Below are positions 38,518-53,948 of a stretch of DNA of 64,000 nucleotides, piece after piece (position 1 is the stretch's first letter; each line of letters begins with the position of its first letter). The position numbers were made by a program, and so were the translations under genes. The DNA comes from Christensenellaceae bacterium (GTDB lineage: Bacteria; Bacillota; Clostridia; Christensenellales; CAG-138), in contig OY776633.1 in NCBI GenBank assembly GCA_963675855.1, forward strand, positions 2,778,546 to 2,842,545. The letters run 5' to 3'. The notes beneath the pieces are model-generated. The model did not search any database, was not told the origin of the DNA, and saw only the letters and a program-made list of their open reading frames with translations.

Positions 38518-40116
38518 CTATATAATCCGTCCTCTACGATAAACAGGATTTCTCCAACTGCGAAGTTTCTCAATTGCTTCACGAATGCTGATAATATCTT
38601 TATTCGAAAAATCAAATATTCCTTTTAAAACTAATTCATCACCAAGCGTATAAGTAGCTTCAATACCGCTTTCAATAGCAGAATTATTTAATTGTGAAAA
38701 AATGCCAGGCACTTTATCGCGAGGTATATCAGCGATTATTTCTAATCTGTCGGCTTCACCAGGAATAACGACAAAACTTCCGCCTCCAAGCGAATGAACA
38801 TTAAGTTCAATTGATAATAAAGTTAGACTATTATACCAACGACATAATAGTTGCTCAGTGGTCGTGTTATTTAAATAACCGCCTAAAAGACTATTTGAAA
38901 CAACATAATTTCCTTTGTTTGCTATCATTTTCGGTTTATCACCAAACACTGATAATATCACATCTGGTATTTCAATGTTTGGAGTAATATACCATGGTTT
39001 GCGTAGACGGCATTTATAGCGTTTCTGTACACCTAGCATTTCCCCACTTTTAATATATAGTCTATCGCCTTCAGAAATTGTCCGTGGAATATATAGTCTT
39101 GACGTACACTCTCCTTTATTCACTTCAATGCCAATGCCCGTACCACCATTAACTTCTTTCGCATTAAGAATAGTAGGCAGTAAATTTTCGTCTGGTAACA
39201 GAAATTGTGCGACAACATCATGTTTGGGATGGAAATATTTCTTATCGGCAGAAACATAACCAATTTTAAATTTGCAACTTTCAAGTATCGGACGAATATG
39301 CTTTTTTTCTCTTAATCGCTCTAAAATTTGTTCTTGTGGAGCAGACAATACTGCTGAGATAAAAGGCTTTTTTCTATCTAGTATATCTTCTAGAGCTATT
39401 CGTTCTTGCTGAAATGCTTGTTTTAATAACAGATCATCGATTGTATTATATATCTCATAATTTATATAATCTGTTTCCCCTCCCTTCCCATCAGCAAAGA
39501 GAAGAACTGTTTCAACATCAACATTAGGAAAAAAATCCTCGTATATACGGCAAATAGTAAGTTCAGAAAAACTCTTTGCTAGTATTTTTAACATCCCAAA
39601 AGCATAACGTGCATATGTGATTTCAAAAGGTAAAACAAATGCTAGGCGTCCATTCTTTTTAAGTGCAGTAATTGCTTTTAAAATAAAAGGAAACCACAAA
39701 CTTCCATTATTTGGACATTGAACTTTATTACATGAAATGACTTGTTGAGCAGTCTCACGTTGTTCAAGTGGCACGTTTCTGATGCTTACATAAGGTGGAT
39801 TTCCTAAAACTACATCAAACTGATCATCGAAATTAAGCGACAAAAAATCTGCAGTACGTACATCCAGCATCTCTGCAGGATATCTGCAACGAACATAGTT
39901 AGCCACATCTGCTTGAATTTCAACCGCCGTAATAAGTGGCTTTGAAGCACCTAACGTTCCAAAGCGTTTAAATGATTTGTCAATAAAAATTCCATTGCCA
40001 AACGAAGGCTCTATCACATGGTCATTCTTGTTTCTAATAGCCCAATTCACTACACTTTCAGCCACTTTGCTTTCTGTGTAAAATGAACCTGTAAGTTTCT
40101 GTCTATCTAAATCCAT
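38518..40116 (-). CDS. gamma-class N6-adenine DNA methyltransferase (Eco57I/TaqI-like N6_Mtase with C-terminal target-recognition domain)
   Basis: Motif X 'GSFYTE', motif I 'VIEPSFGNGIF' (39985-40014) and motif IV 'LGNPPYV' (NPPY at 39790-39801) appear in the gamma order X-I-IV. A C-terminal region of about 300 aa is a plausible TRD. Confidence 0.85.
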   Translation of the reverse strand: MDLDRQKLTGSFYTESKVAESVVNWAIRNKNDHVIEPSFGNGIFIDKSFKRFGTLGASKPLITAVEIQADVANYVRCRYPAEMLDVRTADFLSLNFDDQFDVVLGNPPYVSIRNVPLEQRETAQQVISCNKVQCPNNGSLWFPFILKAITALKKNGRLAFVLPFEITYARYAFGMLKILAKSFSELTICRIYEDFFPNVDVETVLLFADGKGGETDYINYEIYNTIDDLLLKQAFQQERIALEDILDRKKPFISAVLSAPQEQILERLREKKHIRPILESCKFKIGYVSADKKYFHPKHDVVAQFLLPDENLLPTILNAKEVNGGTGIGIEVNKGECTSRLYIPRTISEGDRLYIKSGEMLGVQKRYKCRLRKPWYITPNIEIPDVILSVFGDKPKMIANKGNYVVSNSLLGGYLNNTTTEQLLCRWYNSLTLLSIELNVHSLGGGSFVVIPGEADRLEIIADIPRDKVPGIFSQLNNSAIESGIEATYTLGDELVLKGIFDFSNKDIISIREAIEKLRSWRNPVYRRGRII

Positions 40117-40131
40117 AATAATCTGTCCTAG

Positions 40132-40761
40132 TTATAATGGTTTGCGATTATTATAGGTATTCACAATTTTGTCAAAGAAGTTATCAATACTGAGTAACGG
40201 TATCGTGTTTATCAGAGTAGGAGGGTTGTTTTGAAAATCAACTTTGAGGAAAGCGAAATGCTCATATTTGTCCTTTGTTCCTCGCCAATCATCTCTACCT
40301 ACGATGCGTTCAAACAGGCGCTCAGCACGATCAAGATTCACTTCTTCTCGAAGTCCTTCTTTAATCGGGTGGTTAGGTAATAAATAAACATAACATAAAA
40401 CAGCCATTGGAAATCTATCATGTAGAGAAATACAATCACCGATAATCTCTTCATAGTATGTTAGTAGATTCTTTGCCACCGATGACATTTGACTACGAAT
40501 GCCTATTATTATCTGTGGCCCATTAATGTTTTCAATGACAGCCACGTCAACATCCTTTGGTTTGTGAGAGCCATAAATGGTGGCTTCCTTAATAATTTGA
40601 AAACTAGCATTATCAATCCCTACTTTTCTTAGTTCAGATATGCAATAATCATGCAAAACATTAATAAATTCTTGACTGCGCACTGAAGCTACAGGTGCAT
40701 TGAGATATATTGTTTTCATTTCTTGTAAACAATTAATTAACGCTTGTTTTTGTATTGGCAT
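40132..40761 (-). CDS. putative Type II restriction endonuclease (assignment by context only)
   Basis: 209-aa ORF 15 nt upstream of the methyltransferase, on the same strand and with the same AT-rich composition. A possible PD-(D/E)xK-like core lies around 'KPKDVDVAVIE..IIIGIRSQ', but no family was recognised. Confidence 0.45.
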   Translation of the reverse strand: MPIQKQALINCLQEMKTIYLNAPVASVRSQEFINVLHDYCISELRKVGIDNASFQIIKEATIYGSHKPKDVDVAVIENINGPQIIIGIRSQMSSVAKNLLTYYEEIIGDCISLHDRFPMAVLCYVYLLPNHPIKEGLREEVNLDRAERLFERIVGRDDWRGTKDKYEHFAFLKVDFQNNPPTLINTIPLLSIDNFFDKIVNTYNNRKPL

Positions 40762-50417: not shown

Positions 50418-50948
50418 ATGGCAGCGGCAAAAGGGCTCACGGCGGTAAAGGCGGATGAAAAGGCGAAGATTCGCGGCTACGGCATCGAGCTCAACGACGA
50501 AAAGCTCTCCCGGATCGACAAGATCGTGGAGAGCTACGAGCGGCGCGTCGCCGCGCGGCTGGACGAGGAATACGTGATGCACACGCGGCCCTCCGACCGC
50601 GTTGCGGACAAGGTCGCGGCGTTCGGCGGCAGCTGGACGTTTATCATCATCTTCGCGGCGTTTCTGTTTATCTGGATTCTGATCAACCTGCTTCCCGTGC
50701 TCGGCGTGCAGTTTGACCCGAAGCCGTTTATCCTGCTCAACCTCATCCTCTCGTTCATCGCCGCGTTTCAGGCGCCGATCATCATGATGAGCCAGAACCG
50801 GCAGGCGGCAAGGGACAAGCACGAGTCGATCATCGACTTTGCGATCAACTACAAAGCCGAGCAGGAGATCGACGATCTGCAGAAGCACCTGCACCGGATG
50901 GAGGCGGAGTTGAAGGAGATGAAGGAGATGTTGAGGGAGAGGGGGTGA
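50418..50948 (+). CDS. DUF1003 domain membrane protein
   Basis: 'DKVAAFGGSWTFIIIF', 'FDPKPFILLNLILSFIAAFQAPIIMMSQNRQ' and a C-terminal coiled coil. The start is the ATG at 50418. Confidence 0.8.
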   Translation: MAAAKGLTAVKADEKAKIRGYGIELNDEKLSRIDKIVESYERRVAARLDEEYVMHTRPSDRVADKVAAFGGSWTFIIIFAAFLFIWILINLLPVLGVQFDPKPFILLNLILSFIAAFQAPIIMMSQNRQAARDKHESIIDFAINYKAEQEIDDLQKHLHRMEAELKEMKEMLRERG

Positions 50949-50966
50949 GGACTCAATTAAATGAGA

Positions 50967-53033
50967 TTATCCGATTTTTGTTAACTCTACTTGAATATTG
51001 GTTAACATTCCTTCGAGCAAGCGCTGCTGCACACAGAAATATTGTTCATCTTCATCATTTATACCTTCTGTATCTTCTTGCCAGAATTCAGAGTGTTTTT
51101 TGGCAATATCTGGTTTCAGCTTTAGGTGGTCTTCATTGTGTCTGTATACTTTTATTCTTTCCAAGGATGAAAACAAAGCTGGATAAGATGCTTTTATTTC
51201 TGACCAAAAATACTTGGCTCTGCCTATAGAAACACCATAGTTTTCTATAGATTCAACGAAGCACCTATTGCATATATTTATGAAATGATAAAAATCGCTT
51301 TTTCGCGAAGTTGGCGTAACCGCAGCGAATTTTTCGGCTTCAGGAAAGGAGTTCTCTCCAAACAATTTTGGAAGTTTTAAAATGTAGATTGCCGTCTCTA
51401 GTTCTCTCATATCTCTGATAATTACACTTACTCTCTGAGCAATCCACTTTTTACGCTTCTCTTTATCAATTACCTTATAAAGCGATTTTCGGTTTTCTTT
51501 TTTTGCTAACTCTGTTGCGACATATCTACCTGCAACTGGCATTTTTACTCGTGGAATATTATCCGCATCCTTTTCAACAAGACCATAATTATATAAATGT
51601 TTTACAAAATCTGATAACGCTGAAAGTTCAATAAAATCACTTGTTTGGCCAGAAGCTAATAACTCAAACATCTCATACTCTTCAGGATAAAACTGCTGTA
51701 TTTCTGAAACAATATGTTTAAAATAATAAGCCAATTCAGTATCTATATCCGTTTGATACTTTTTTATCTCGTTGAGACTTACTTCAACTGGTCTTTTTGT
51801 ATTTGAACACTCACGATTAATATAACTACATACAAGTCGAGTAAGCATCGGATGCCCATTGTATTGTTTGAAAAGAAATTCAATTGCATCATAATTGAAT
51901 TTAAGACCCATTCTTCTGCCCAATGTTCGAATCATATTGTGCAAGTCTTCATTTGTTAGTCCTTGCAAATATTCTGATTGGACTATTCCAAACAATGGAT
52001 TTTGTATTCCTTCAATTGTATCGATTTCAGTTACACTTGGATTTACACCTGAAATAATGAAGACTAAATTTCTATGTAAGCTCTGAATTGACCACAAAGT
52101 TTGCCAAAAATCAACGAACTCCGTTTTCCAATGCACATCTAAAGGCGATTTAAATGATATGTATTCAATCTCATCAAACATTATGATAATTTTTATATTC
52201 CTTATCGATGCTTCTTTCATAACGAAACGGAAACTTTTTATAATATTCAATGCATCATATTCTCGCCGTATCCTCACTTTTAAACGCTTCGCAATATTAT
52301 CACAAATTGATCCCAAAAATTCATTCCAATGCATTTTTCGATACGATGGAGATTTACAGTCATAAAAGAACACAAAACCCAAATGCTGTTCTCTAATCAC
52401 CCGATCAATCTTGAAAAGAAGGGATGTTTTTCCAACTTTTCGCACGCCAAAAATCCCTTTATTTTCGCATCTTCTTATTGAATCTATATATCGAGCGACT
52501 AATTGTTGTCTGCCAAAAAAAGAGCTTTCTTCTCGTATAGGAAGCGTATAACCAAACAGATCAATATCAAAGAAATTATCTCTAAGAATATTTCTTATAT
52601 ACCATGCATCGCTTCTGTTTTTTAATAGATCCGAATACAATATTGGAACAAAAACTCTTGAACTTTCATCACCAAAGAGCTTTACTCCTTTATGCTCTAA
52701 TACCCTTTCGTCTTTTGAAACAAATATACAATTAAGTGTATCTACTCTTCCTTGAAACGGATGAATATTGAACAAAGAATGTGCAGCCTGAAATGCCCTA
52801 GGTTGTAATTCATCAAACGGAGTATAGATTAGAAGTATTTCTTTTTCAAGACCGAACGCTTCTGTAATATGTTTTTCGGGTTTCAACATGAATACAAAGA
52901 CTACCGTATTAGTAGTCTCTTTTTTATCAGCATATGTCACATCAAAAACATGTATGAATGCAGCTAGAAAACCGTAAAATTCAGGATATTGCGTCAGAAA
53001 TCCATTCTGAACTTCTTCTTTTATTCTGCCCAT
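50967..53033 (-). CDS. 688-aa P-loop ATPase with an unknown N-terminal domain, a wHTH-like segment and a C-terminal HEPN-like (Rx4H) region; function unknown, candidate defence protein
   Basis: 'FFGRQQLVARYIDSI..' precedes Walker A 'GIFGVRKVGKTSLL' (52422-52448). Walker B is 'IIIMFDEIE' (52164-52190), and 'GHPMLTRLV' is lid-like. A wHTH-like segment spans ~aa 455-505. The C-terminal 'LERIKVYRHNEDHL' contains RHNEDH at 51126-51143. GAGGAGG RBS and its own promoter are present. Confidence 0.85.
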   Translation of the reverse strand: MGRIKEEVQNGFLTQYPEFYGFLAAFIHVFDVTYADKKETTNTVVFVFMLKPEKHITEAFGLEKEILLIYTPFDELQPRAFQAAHSLFNIHPFQGRVDTLNCIFVSKDERVLEHKGVKLFGDESSRVFVPILYSDLLKNRSDAWYIRNILRDNFFDIDLFGYTLPIREESSFFGRQQLVARYIDSIRRCENKGIFGVRKVGKTSLLFKIDRVIREQHLGFVFFYDCKSPSYRKMHWNEFLGSICDNIAKRLKVRIRREYDALNIIKSFRFVMKEASIRNIKIIIMFDEIEYISFKSPLDVHWKTEFVDFWQTLWSIQSLHRNLVFIISGVNPSVTEIDTIEGIQNPLFGIVQSEYLQGLTNEDLHNMIRTLGRRMGLKFNYDAIEFLFKQYNGHPMLTRLVCSYINRECSNTKRPVEVSLNEIKKYQTDIDTELAYYFKHIVSEIQQFYPEEYEMFELLASGQTSDFIELSALSDFVKHLYNYGLVEKDADNIPRVKMPVAGRYVATELAKKENRKSLYKVIDKEKRKKWIAQRVSVIIRDMRELETAIYILKLPKLFGENSFPEAEKFAAVTPTSRKSDFYHFINICNRCFVESIENYGVSIGRAKYFWSEIKASYPALFSSLERIKVYRHNEDHLKLKPDIAKKHSEFWQEDTEGINDEDEQYFCVQQRLLEGMLTNIQVELTKIG

Positions 53034-53067
53034 ATATCCTCCTCAAAAAATGCGAATTCTTAATATG

Positions 53068-53096
53068 ACTTTACATTAAGAAAATACAAATTTCAA
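53068..53096 (-). promoter_or_regulatory. candidate promoter of the ATPase gene (TTGAAA-17 nt-TAAAGT) overlapped by an inverted repeat
   Basis: On the minus strand, -35 TTGAAA is the complement of 53091-53096 and -10 TAAAGT is the complement of 53068-53073. The inverted repeat ttcttaat/attaagaa (53057-53064 / 53075-53082) brackets the -10. Confidence 0.35.
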
Positions 53097-53225
53097 TAGA
53101 ATTTACTACATTCTTAAGTGTTTCTTCCCTTTGCTCCTTACCCTTCCTCCAACTCCAAATCCAATAACCCCCACTATGCCAAAACCACCCGCAGCCTATT
53201 CCGCGCGCCCCGCGTTAAATCTCCC

Positions 53226-53948
53226 CTACCCCAACAACAGCGCTTCCAACTCCTCAAACCCGTCCACGGTATAGGTCGGCTGAATCTCTTCGCGCGCCTT
53301 TGCACCCTCTGGCCGCAGCCAGCAGGTGTCCATCCCCGCGTTGATGCCGCCTAAAATATCTGCGGTGAGCGAATCGCCGATCATGAGGTATTTGCTCCTC
53401 TTTTCGTCGCCAAAATGGTCGAACACGCGGTCGAAATACGCCTTGTCCGGCTTCTGCACGCCCATCTCCTGCGAGATGAACACCCCGTCGAACAGCGCGT
53501 CGAACCCGGTGCGCTTCAGCCGCTCGCGCTGCACGATCTTCAGCCCGTTGGTCACGGCGGCGATGCGGTAGCGTTCTTTGAGCCGCACGAGCAGCTCTTC
53601 TGCGCCGTCGAACAGGACCGCCTGCCGGCTGAGGTTGTCCACATATTGCGCGTTGAGCGCGGTCGCCCCGGCGGCGTCCTGCCCGAGATGCTCCAAAAAC
53701 ATCTCGAAGCGCACGCGCTGCACGCCCTCGCTGTTTAGCAATCCCTTTTCGAACCTGCCCCATACGACCGTATTGATCTCGCGGTACTTTTTGTAGTCGC
53801 GCTCGCCGATGGAGCTGCCCCGCTCCTCCATCGTCTGCATCAGCGCGATCTTTTCGCCCGCGTGGAAGTCCATGAGCGTATTGTCGAGGTCGAAGAGCAG
53901 GAATTCGTAGCGCAGGGGTTTTGTAGGATCGTTCGTCTTTTTCATCAT
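53226..53948 (-). CDS. HAD-IA hydrolase, YjjG-like 5'-nucleotidase family
   Basis: 'FLLFDLDNTLMDF' (motif I), 'AAVTNG' (motif II) and 'MIGDSLTADILGGINAGMDTCW' (motif IV). I moved the start to 53948; the ORF-track extension to 54194 has no support. Confidence 0.8.
   Translation of the reverse strand: MMKKTNDPTKPLRYEFLLFDLDNTLMDFHAGEKIALMQTMEERGSSIGERDYKKYREINTVVWGRFEKGLLNSEGVQRVRFEMFLEHLGQDAAGATALNAQYVDNLSRQAVLFDGAEELLVRLKERYRIAAVTNGLKIVQRERLKRTGFDALFDGVFISQEMGVQKPDKAYFDRVFDHFGDEKRSKYLMIGDSLTADILGGINAGMDTCWLRPEGAKAREEIQPTYTVDGFEELEALLLG

Follow-up and report, generated by a model that had tools for sequence, protein, structure and literature searches.

The subject of this work is a stretch of 64,000 nucleotides (in the following, the window) from the genome of a Christensenellaceae bacterium (assembly GCA_963675855.1, contig OY776633.1, positions 2,778,546 to 2,842,545), and in particular an AT-rich island within it. 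The genome, here termed G000, is a single contig of 2,853,364 bp, in which the window corresponds to C1:2778546-2842545. We are highly confident that positions 50949-53120 constitute a horizontally acquired single-gene cassette, located in a hypervariable defence slot which is found throughout the genus and has its left end at the stop codon of the core gene DUF1003. The only gene of the cassette encodes a protein of 688 aa. Its location, distribution, linkage to restriction-modification (R-M) genes and architecture point to a defence protein of the abortive-infection type that acts on its own, which we regard as the most likely role of this cargo with reasonable rather than strong confidence. 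To the explanation as a whole, i.e., an exchanged cassette in a defence slot that carries a stand-alone defence NTPase with a putative HEPN-type RNase, we assign a probability of roughly 0.6.

The island is sharply delimited by its composition. The GC content, determined in 300-nt windows, is 0.56-0.66 up to position 50949, drops to 0.31-0.36 up to approximately 53200 and is 0.59-0.62 thereafter. At the borders themselves the sliding-window values are 0.56-0.60 before the DUF1003 stop and 0.50-0.59 again by 53050-53499. The segment 50949-53125 has a GC content of 0.331 and is essentially the lowest-GC window of 2,177 bp in the genome (minimum 0.3307, at the same place). With a genome mean of 0.556 and a standard deviation of 0.051 this corresponds to z = -4.4, and windows at or below this value make up a fraction of 1.8e-5. 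The tetranucleotide distance of the segment from the genome is 0.78 and exceeds that of all 600 random windows (maximum 0.67). At third codon positions the GC content (GC3) of the 688-aa gene is 0.26, compared to 0.87 for DUF1003, 0.83 for the HAD gene, 0.82 for the GGDEF gene and 0.85 for the UPF0047 gene. An earlier reading, made from the letters of the window only (the sequence-only reading), had described a composition that flips right after the TGA of the DUF1003 gene (50946-50948) and recovers near 53125-53226, with a codon usage foreign to the genome, and had named GC, GC3 and tetranucleotide plots as a check. Carried out genome-wide, this check shows that the discontinuity is real and extreme in all three measures, with both borders where that reading had placed them. 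It also holds that the island carries exactly one gene with its own promoter-like and ribosome-binding signals. The only long open reading frame (ORF) in the island is the cargo gene (50967..53033, minus strand), and the AT-rich region 5' of it (53034..53120), which is part of the cassette, contains a GGAGGA ribosome-binding site and a promoter-like TTGAAA-17-TAAAGT at 53096-53068 on the minus strand, with TTGAAA as -35 and TAAAGT as -10 element. The putative -10 element is bracketed by an 8-bp inverted repeat (ttcttaat/attaagaa, 53057-53082). An operator role for this repeat is unsupported by comparison with the sole homolog in the same slot, in which the right half is unconserved.

The left anchor of the slot is the DUF1003 gene (50418..50948, plus strand; 176 aa from ATG; Pfam DUF1003, E 4.8e-36). 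In an alignment of seven congeners the homology ends at the stop codon of this gene (50946-50948), which thus forms the left junction, and the sequences that follow are unrelated to each other. The stop codons of the convergent DUF1003 and cargo genes are separated by a spacer of 18 nt (50949..50966), which is too short for a terminator hairpin; on a contig with a homolog of the cargo in the same slot this spacer is 38 nt long. The 688-aa gene is absent from 36/36 same-genus and 24/24 same-order species representatives searched, and the DUF1003 gene is present in 25 of the 36 congeners. The closest relative is G017, with 93% nucleotide identity in DUF1003 and a synonymous divergence (dS) of 0.25. 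Directly after the DUF1003 stop it carries a different AT-rich gene on the opposite strand, encoding a membrane-anchored HerA-like ATPase of 740 aa (E 2e-26). As the two genomes hold different cargos, at least one of the two lineages swapped its cargo after their split.

Further occupants of the slot are similarly diverse. Genome G010 carries an AT-rich PDC-S06 gene (E 8e-170), G031 an AT-rich AAA_13/PDC-S06-like gene, and G035 an AT-rich pair encoding a 175-aa protein and a 360-aa HATPase_c protein, while in G003, G018 and G021 the position is taken by a DUF6311 gene of normal GC content. In G021 an AT-rich gene for the Hachiman helicase HamB (L026 157-2730, plus strand; PADLOC E 2e-271) lies right after the DUF6311 gene, and its position suggests that the variable region extends further in this genome or holds a second slot. 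The 1.5 kb downstream of DUF1003 were surveyed in 19 congeners, 17 of which were informative; the GC content is at most 0.43 in 13 of these 17, and the ORFs fall into about a dozen unrelated clusters. Metagenome contigs that contain the 3' end of DUF1003 add a 1,196-aa PIN-TPR-GreABC protein and an NsnA/GmrSD_N gene (E 4.5e-77) with a RiboL-PSP-HEPN partner. In total, about 13 unrelated AT-rich cargo types were found among about 20 same-genus genomes and contigs, and a near-empty site exists in G030, in which about 100 nt separate the DUF1003 stop from a RibD_C-like gene. The site thus has the properties of a hotspot: a fixed position with conserved bounds, contents that differ between genomes and include known defence systems, and an unoccupied version. 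The sequence-only reading had envisaged the insertion of one gene. A single-gene cassette is indeed present; it is not a one-off insertion but one occupant of a genus-wide slot. The empty site expected by that reading, with DUF1003 directly abutting the HAD gene, was not encountered, as relatives keep three genes between the slot and the HAD gene. Its main proposal was to be given up if the GC profile were continuous or if all relatives carried the gene at this position; the discontinuity is present and relatives without the gene at this site exist.

The slot is filled by a cargo of this family in a second lineage as well. The nearest homolog of the 688-aa protein (P0002, 83% amino acid identity) is encoded on a 2,337-bp contig from an unrelated sample. 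Past the cargo stop this contig continues into the reverse complement of the DUF1003 3' end (…AGATTAAGGAGTTGTTGAGGGAGAGGGAGTAG), and upstream of the cargo promoter it contains the hairpin that is conserved in the right flank of the slot. The promoter block is common to both cassettes up to approximately position 53099. The two cargo genes share 77% nucleotide identity (0.87, 0.93 and 0.51 at the first, second and third codon position), with a non-synonymous divergence (dN) of 0.098 and a dS that is saturated (>2). Across the genus the dS of DUF1003 is 0.25-0.85, a value that is lowered by the strong codon bias of this GC-rich core gene. As the dS of the cargo is far above that of DUF1003, the same-slot copies did not co-diverge with their hosts. 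The same pattern is seen for two other cargos, i.e., the HerA-like pair of G017 and G022 (61% versus 82%) and the AAA_13 pair of G031 and G014 (68% versus 90%). These sequence comparisons indicate that the cassette alleles are under purifying selection and older than the divergence of their hosts, and they fit a long-lived pool of cassettes that is shuffled among lineages. The description of the cargo as recently acquired in the sequence-only reading can be kept in part: the gene is foreign cargo between core genes, but its low GC content is no clock of recency, because in 35 of 37 loci across phyla the family gene is richer in AT than the host, and the copy in the same slot is saturated at synonymous sites.

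In most relatives the right flank of the slot consists of a terminator hairpin (GGGCGGC-CTAA-GCCGCCC), a gene of 60-65 aa, a RibD_C-like gene and a PpnP-like gene, followed by the HAD gene. G000 lacks the 60-65-aa gene, the RibD_C-like gene and the PpnP-like gene both at the slot and elsewhere in the genome; these three genes were therefore removed by the cargo event or by a later deletion. The right anchor in G000 is the gene of a HAD-family hydrolase (53226..53948, minus strand; 240 aa from MMKK; Pfam Hydrolase/HAD_2), the orthologue of which lies 1.1 kb farther from the slot in G017. Between cassette and HAD gene there is a C-rich, G-poor segment of about 95 nt (53121..53214), which is homologous to the segment that follows the different cargo of G017 (L022 6446-6534; z = 5.3 versus shuffles) and has a GC skew of -0.45 in both genomes. 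In these two genomes the segment marks where the slot ends on the right; it was not detected in the other congeners. Three explanations for the segment 53121-53214 were discarded: it is unique in the genome, which argues against a repeated recombination site, and comparisons with the 3' end of DUF1003 in inverted form and with the 3' end of RibD_C, as the source of a remnant, gave z-values of only 1.3 and 1.4, respectively. The 60-65-aa protein (…GKLMS[T/M]SMRQYTRKGK) borders the slot together with a strong hairpin in G017 (L022 6779-6961, minus strand) and G031 (L024 2597-2794, plus strand), and also in L023, L025 and L081. An intergenic repeat of about 100-180 nt, recognized by near-identical translations of spurious ORFs (…GAAVVAN.L.LHL…), occurs twice between cargo and PpnP in G017 (L022 6444-6623 and 7028-7201) and once in G031 (L024 1771-1986). 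Possible explanations are a repeat specific to the genus and a small RNA.

Signatures of a mobile element are missing around the island. There is no tRNA gene in the window between 40000 and 64000, and flanking direct repeats, terminal inverted repeats (TIRs) and target-site duplications (TSDs) of the island amount to short matches at chance level. The nearest tyrosine integrase, serine recombinase or rve transposase gene in the genome is at least 295 kb away, these three families being the ones scanned. The scans thus agree with the sequence-only reading, which had seen no mobility genes, tRNA or direct repeats, and the search for TSDs at the junctions, which it had named as a check, likewise gave chance-level repeats only. 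For the three recombinase families scanned the features of a site-specific element or of an integron cassette were not found, as recombinase, TSD, TIR, tRNA and a shared cassette-end sequence are all lacking. The turnover of cassettes may do without a recombinase of its own. Its most likely basis is homologous recombination between conserved flanking sequences once DNA has been taken up or transferred, which is the simplest mechanism because no site-specific signature is present. The right side of the slot would erode occasionally, and in G000 the three genes that relatives keep there would have been lost in this way.

Three other origins of the island have to be weighed against an exchanged cassette. 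That the gene is an ancient resident, its odd composition being kept by selection or mutation bias, would agree with an intact gene under strong purifying selection, with a family that is AT-rich in nearly all hosts, so that low GC need not mean recent arrival, and with the diverged copy that a different lineage of the genus has in this slot. We consider it very improbable, since the gene is missing from all 36 congeners searched, the slot of the closest relative G017 holds an unrelated gene, the position is used by about 13 different cargos and is nearly empty in one genome, and the same-slot copies, saturated at synonymous sites, did not diverge along with their hosts. The reuse of exactly the same position by unrelated cargos, the presence of homologs near serine recombinases in 4 loci and the C-rich segment of about 95 nt that bounds the slot in G000 and G017 could instead point to a decayed remnant of a site-specific mobile element, e.g., an integrative element, a transposon or an integron-like cassette, with a recombinase that acts in trans or was lost. 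This has a small but appreciable probability. It is made less likely by the missing tRNA, TSD and TIR, by the distance of at least 295 kb to any integrase, resolvase or rve gene, and by the C-rich segment, which is unique in the genome and undetected in other congeners. Moreover, the different cargos share no left-end sequence, and they lie in either orientation and bring their own promoters, in which they differ from integron cassettes. An assembly or binning artefact, in which a low-GC contig was chimerically joined into a high-GC genome, could be suspected as the assembly possibly originates from metagenome or long-read data and as the island is the most extreme composition outlier of the genome. 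Its probability is negligible: the 2.85-Mb genome is assembled as one contig, a second assembly, obtained independently from a different sample, joins a homolog to the DUF1003 3' end and the right-flank hairpin in the same way, and AT-rich cargos are found at the same junction in many independent congeners.

The 688-aa protein has three modules, and its chain divides into four parts. An AlphaFold2 model built with 31 homologs has a mean pLDDT of 79.6. Residues 1-160 (52554..53033, minus strand) form an alpha/beta domain (pLDDT 82-91), for which alignments over phyla show conserved residues E53, E65, R79, R96, R126 and R147 and no classical nuclease motif. This region has no Pfam match, nor did the family profile find a relative among the sequences of the PDB. 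The protein starts with Met-Gly-x-Ile (residues 1-4, 53022-53033, minus strand), which is invariant in all full-length members across phyla and unusual for a bacterial cytoplasmic protein. Residues 175-440 (51714..52511, minus strand) constitute a P-loop NTPase of the ORC/Cdc6-STAND type, as judged by Pfam AAA_35, Foldseek and sequence motifs. The Walker A motif GVRKVGKTS (52422-52457, minus strand; GxxxxGK[ST]) and the Walker B motif IIIMFDEIEY (52161-52190, minus strand; hhhhDE) are invariant in 31 sequences. The Pfam AAA_35 match is marginal (27.8 bits with a cut-off of 27) and ATPase_2 remains below its cut-off. A Foldseek search with the full-length model gave ORC2, Cdc6 and ORC1 with E-values of 2.5e-6 to 3e-5 and the plant NLR NRC3 with 1.8e-4; in the PDB and in a viral library only generic AAA+/ORC matches were obtained, and the TM-scores are low because the query is a multi-domain protein. 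The NTPase includes the motif GHPML (residues 393-397; 51837-51857, minus strand) and is followed by a winged-helix-like module (residues 441-514; 51492..51713, minus strand) with H479, which is recognized by the secondary structure of the AlphaFold2 model and is spanned by the ORC/Cdc6 alignments. GHPML and H479 are invariant and stand in the right order for the GxP module and the winged-helix histidine of STAND proteins, an assignment that was made by eye. The models nSTAND1/2/6 gave weak matches only, in one distant member.

The C-terminal domain (residues 515-688; 50970..51491, minus strand) is a putative HEPN-like RNase effector. Modelled as a stand-alone domain, it is all-helical with a pLDDT of 91.6 and a pTM of 0.87, the all-helical character as such being generic. 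Among 40 sequences of the domain from many phyla, with identities down to 16%, the only invariant residues are F584, R631 and H636. R631 and H636 are part of a Y-R-[H/N]-x3-H motif (Y-R631-H-N-E-D-H636 in G000, within 51117-51155, minus strand), and upstream of it the acidic residue E594 (within 51234-51269, minus strand) is conserved in at least 90% of the 40 sequences. The signature of HEPN RNases is Rx4-6H with a polar residue (N, D or H) after the arginine and a second acidic residue (PMC3710099), and R631-[H/N]-x3-H636 together with E594 fits this definition. A profile search with the C-terminal domain against 1.84 billion representatives retrieved 222 clusters, which comprise only the 690-aa architecture and a sister family of about 590 aa. 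The sister family shares only the C-terminal domain (30% identity, with YRNxxxH kept), and its N-terminal region of about 420 residues is unrelated and non-ATPase. The domain is therefore portable between chassis, as expected of an effector module. Members of the sister family, e.g., P0231, P0236, P0246, P0253 and P0260, have a length of about 580-604 aa and show at most a weak winged helix-turn-helix match in the N-terminal region.

The family is large and sporadically distributed. A word-indexed search retrieved at least 448 full-length relatives, nearly all of them 686-692 aa long and unnamed. In named genomes 49 loci were collected, which span many phyla and include Oscillospiraceae, Flavonifractor, Pseudoflavonifractor, Lachnospiraceae, Christensenellales, Cohnella, Pseudomonas, Zoogloea, Sphingomonas, Rhodobacteraceae, Chlorobium, Chloroflexota, Verrucomicrobiota, Kiritimatiellae, Spirochaetes and Armatimonadota. 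Ralstonia megaplasmids carry full-length copies at 39% identity, annotated as 'hypothetical' or 'ATP-binding protein'. In Ralstonia solanacearum and R. pseudosolanacearum (H1-H15; L101 7001-9079) a full-length homolog is found in some strains and a match to residues 283-686 only in many others, which suggests, from the sequences compared, strain-level truncation or rearrangement; the Ralstonia homologs have a further AAA ATPase and a toxin/regulator pair among their neighbours. The family was not found in any of 50,697 phage records. The family gene is AT-richer than both of its flanks in 35 of 37 loci with a mean offset of 0.14, and its GC content correlates with that of the host (r = 0.64). 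Internal stops or frameshifts disrupt 6 of the 49 copies (L044, L050, L056, L059, L071 and L079), suggesting that decay of the gene is frequent.

The genomic neighbourhood links a part of the family to R-M systems. Of 45 loci, at least 12 have the gene at the end of an R-M operon, in the same orientation as the R-M genes. Linkage to Type I systems is found in L039, L042, L058 and L062, to Type III systems in L035, L037, L041, L044, L050 and L078, and to a further methylase or MjaI in L056 and L066. The order hsdR-hsdM-hsdS-X, with X as the family gene, occurs in L042 and L062, with overlapping stop and start codons in L062 and L039; the order mod-res-X is present in L035, L037, L044 and L050, and related arrangements in L041, L078, L056, L058 and L066. 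Elsewhere the gene lies near Eco57I-type and D12 methylases, AAA_15/21 ATPases, HTH_3 regulators, a toxin-antitoxin pair or serine recombinases. The R-M partners are restricted to these subsets of loci and no universal partner gene of the family was found; in many hosts, including G000, the gene is solitary. In two gut-metagenome contexts (L028 10068-10845 and L031 10068-10666) a gene-free gap of 600-780 bp follows the homolog.

We propose that the N-terminal Arg/Glu-rich domain would sense a trigger, upon which the ORC/Cdc6-STAND-type NTPase with its winged helix would bind ATP and oligomerise. Oligomerisation would gather the C-terminal helical domains, whose R-[H/N]-x3-H motifs may then form a HEPN-type metal-independent RNase site, and this site would cut cellular or phage RNA and thereby arrest growth. 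The protein would thus work in the manner of PrrC and RloC or of small STAND switches. Where its gene is the last of a Type I or Type III R-M operon, it could serve as a reserve that is triggered once restriction has been disabled, as with PrrC. For the HEPN-RNase mechanism itself, which is read from the motif, we see a little less than even odds.

Several points weigh against this proposal. PADLOC, NCBIfam and PHROGs give no defence assignment for the 688-aa protein, and literature searches for the family (AAA_35/PF14516; PF01637 with defence) retrieved nothing specific. The sole basis of the HEPN assignment is the motif. Pfam gives nothing for the C-terminal domain of the query, and the HEPN family DUF4145 is touched by 2 of the 40 members with an E-value of 0.02; in hhalign against an alignment of DUF4145 (10 genomic matches) the domain reaches a probability of 0.5%, though the motifs line up. 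Foldseek with the domain model returns generic helical bundles (best E 0.43; the HepT entry 7bxo_D at E 1.4), and the profile search in the 1.84 billion representatives gave no bridge to a named HEPN family. The N-terminal domain has no recognizable fold relative, so which end of the protein is sensor and which is effector is a guess. The gene is solitary in G000, hence a role as guard of an R-M system cannot apply there as such. As to the slot, the cargo typing in most congeners is based on 1.5 kb of downstream sequence, and exchange via the flanks is deduced from the lack of other signatures and not from a comparison of conspecific strains, as look-ups of the exact flanking DUF1003 and HAD proteins found no conspecific strain.

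The main functional alternative is a DNA-transaction ATPase, i.e., a loader similar to ORC, DnaA, IstB or TnsC, or an accessory or regulatory subunit of R-M systems, instead of an immune effector. Structurally the protein comes closest to ORC/Cdc6 initiators and clamp loaders that have a winged helix, the coupling to Type I and Type III R-M genes is tightly operonic in at least 12 loci, and the nuclease assignment has no statistical support. On the other side, the gene does not depend on an R-M partner, as it is solitary in many hosts including G000, and a conserved transposase or replication partner is lacking. Furthermore, the invariant residues of the C-terminal domain form an Rx4H motif of catalytic type, the domain also occurs on a non-ATPase chassis, and bona fide defence genes occupy the same slot in relatives. 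Taken together, we regard this alternative as unlikely and prefer the reading of the cargo as a candidate defence protein.

The family would add to the defence repertoire a candidate that current annotation tools leave unnamed. It comprises about 220 clusters (50% identity), with members in gut Clostridia, Pseudomonas, Ralstonia megaplasmids, Chloroflexi and Verrucomicrobia, among others. The architecture of the family ties ORC/STAND-type switches to an HEPN-like motif and to R-M operons, and with K202, R631 and H636 it offers a mutable test case for a back-up wiring of this kind. The slot is a compact and well-bounded hotspot in a poorly studied high-GC gut genus, and since at least half of its about 13 cargos are uncharacterised, it provides a list of further candidates. 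The AT-richness emerges as a lasting property of the gene family and not as a clock for recent transfer, and cassette alleles can far predate the species that carry them. A broader and distinctly speculative view combines both levels. The family would represent a new class of single-chain immune switch, in which an ORC/Cdc6-STAND-type NTPase, guarding R-M systems or acting alone, kills through a highly divergent HEPN-type RNase private to the family, as a convergent counterpart of PrrC on another ATPase chassis, and the DUF1003 slot would be a recombinase-independent exchange site in which ancient defence alleles are kept as trans-species polymorphism by phage-driven balancing selection.

Outside of the slot, the window contains a second AT-rich island about 10 kb upstream (38518-40761, minus strand; GC approximately 0.39). 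Two proteins encoded there, an Eco57I-type N6-adenine methyltransferase of 532 aa (PADLOC MTase_II, E 5.7e-83) and one of 209 aa with a match to a Type II restriction endonuclease model (E 3.8e-15), form a Type II R-M pair.

The DUF1003 slot resembles the core defence hotspots (cDHS) of Pseudomonas aeruginosa (PMC10250203) and hotspot #37 of E. coli (PMC10121019), as it has a fixed position between conserved genes, is occupied in most genomes, holds diverse and mostly defence-related cargos and differs in its contents between close relatives. Unlike these, it is found in a genus of about 56% GC, with the closest homologs of the cargo in gut Clostridia of the Oscillospiraceae type; it usually contains one or two genes, starts exactly at a stop codon and holds alleles that are older than the split of the hosts. 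It also differs from most E. coli hotspots, which are integration sites of mobile genetic elements, in that no carrier element is recognizable by the scans for three recombinase families and for tRNA genes.

The 688-aa protein shares with STAND and other AAA+ defence proteins, such as Avs and the STAND-ATPase-HEPN fusions (PMC3710099; PMC13581612), an NTPase that is placed between a putative sensor and a putative effector, as well as Walker A, a Walker B of the form hhhhDE and the occurrence in defence contexts; GHPML and the winged helix with its invariant histidine are putative counterparts of the GxP module and sensing histidine of STAND proteins. Compared to Avs it is much smaller with its 688 aa, lacks a TPR or other repeat sensor and gives no PADLOC match to Avs or to any other system (E <= 1). 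Its closest solved folds are those of ORC/Cdc6 and not of NLRs, and both terminal domains are private to the family. HEC-08, one of the single-gene HEPN defences found by guilt-by-embedding (bioRxiv 10.1101/2024.01.29.577857), is likewise a candidate RNase defence protein that was recognized by its presence in multi-gene immune operons and by a logic centred on Rx4-6H. However, HEC-08 is a HEPN protein of the DUF3644 type with Zn ribbons and no NTPase, the fold of which was confirmed by structural matches, whereas structural matching failed for the C-terminal domain of the 688-aa protein.

The closest comparison is that with the anticodon nucleases PrrC and RloC, which combine an ATPase with a C-terminal HEPN-type RNase, prrC being located within the Type Ic EcoprrI hsd locus (PMC3710099, PMC3458546, PMC2610378). 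The 688-aa protein is an analogue and not a member of this group: its NTPase is of the ORC/Cdc6-STAND type (AAA_35/ATPase_2) and not an ABC ATPase, PADLOC gives no match of the PrrC/RloC type, and there is an additional N-terminal alpha/beta domain and a winged helix. Neither by sequence nor by profile could a similarity of the C-terminal domain to PrrC or to further HEPN families be detected, and the gene is the last of its operon, while prrC lies between hsdS and hsdR. The similarities concern context and design. As with PrrC and RloC, the family is often operon-linked to R-M systems (Type I hsdR-M-S-X, Type III mod-res-X), a linkage that is not seen in the window, and like RloC it also occurs as a solitary gene, with a sporadic distribution that is driven by horizontal gene transfer. 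In all three proteins a single chain carries an N-terminal NTPase that regulates, in the 688-aa protein putatively, a C-terminal domain with an invariant R-x4-H motif and a polar residue after the arginine.

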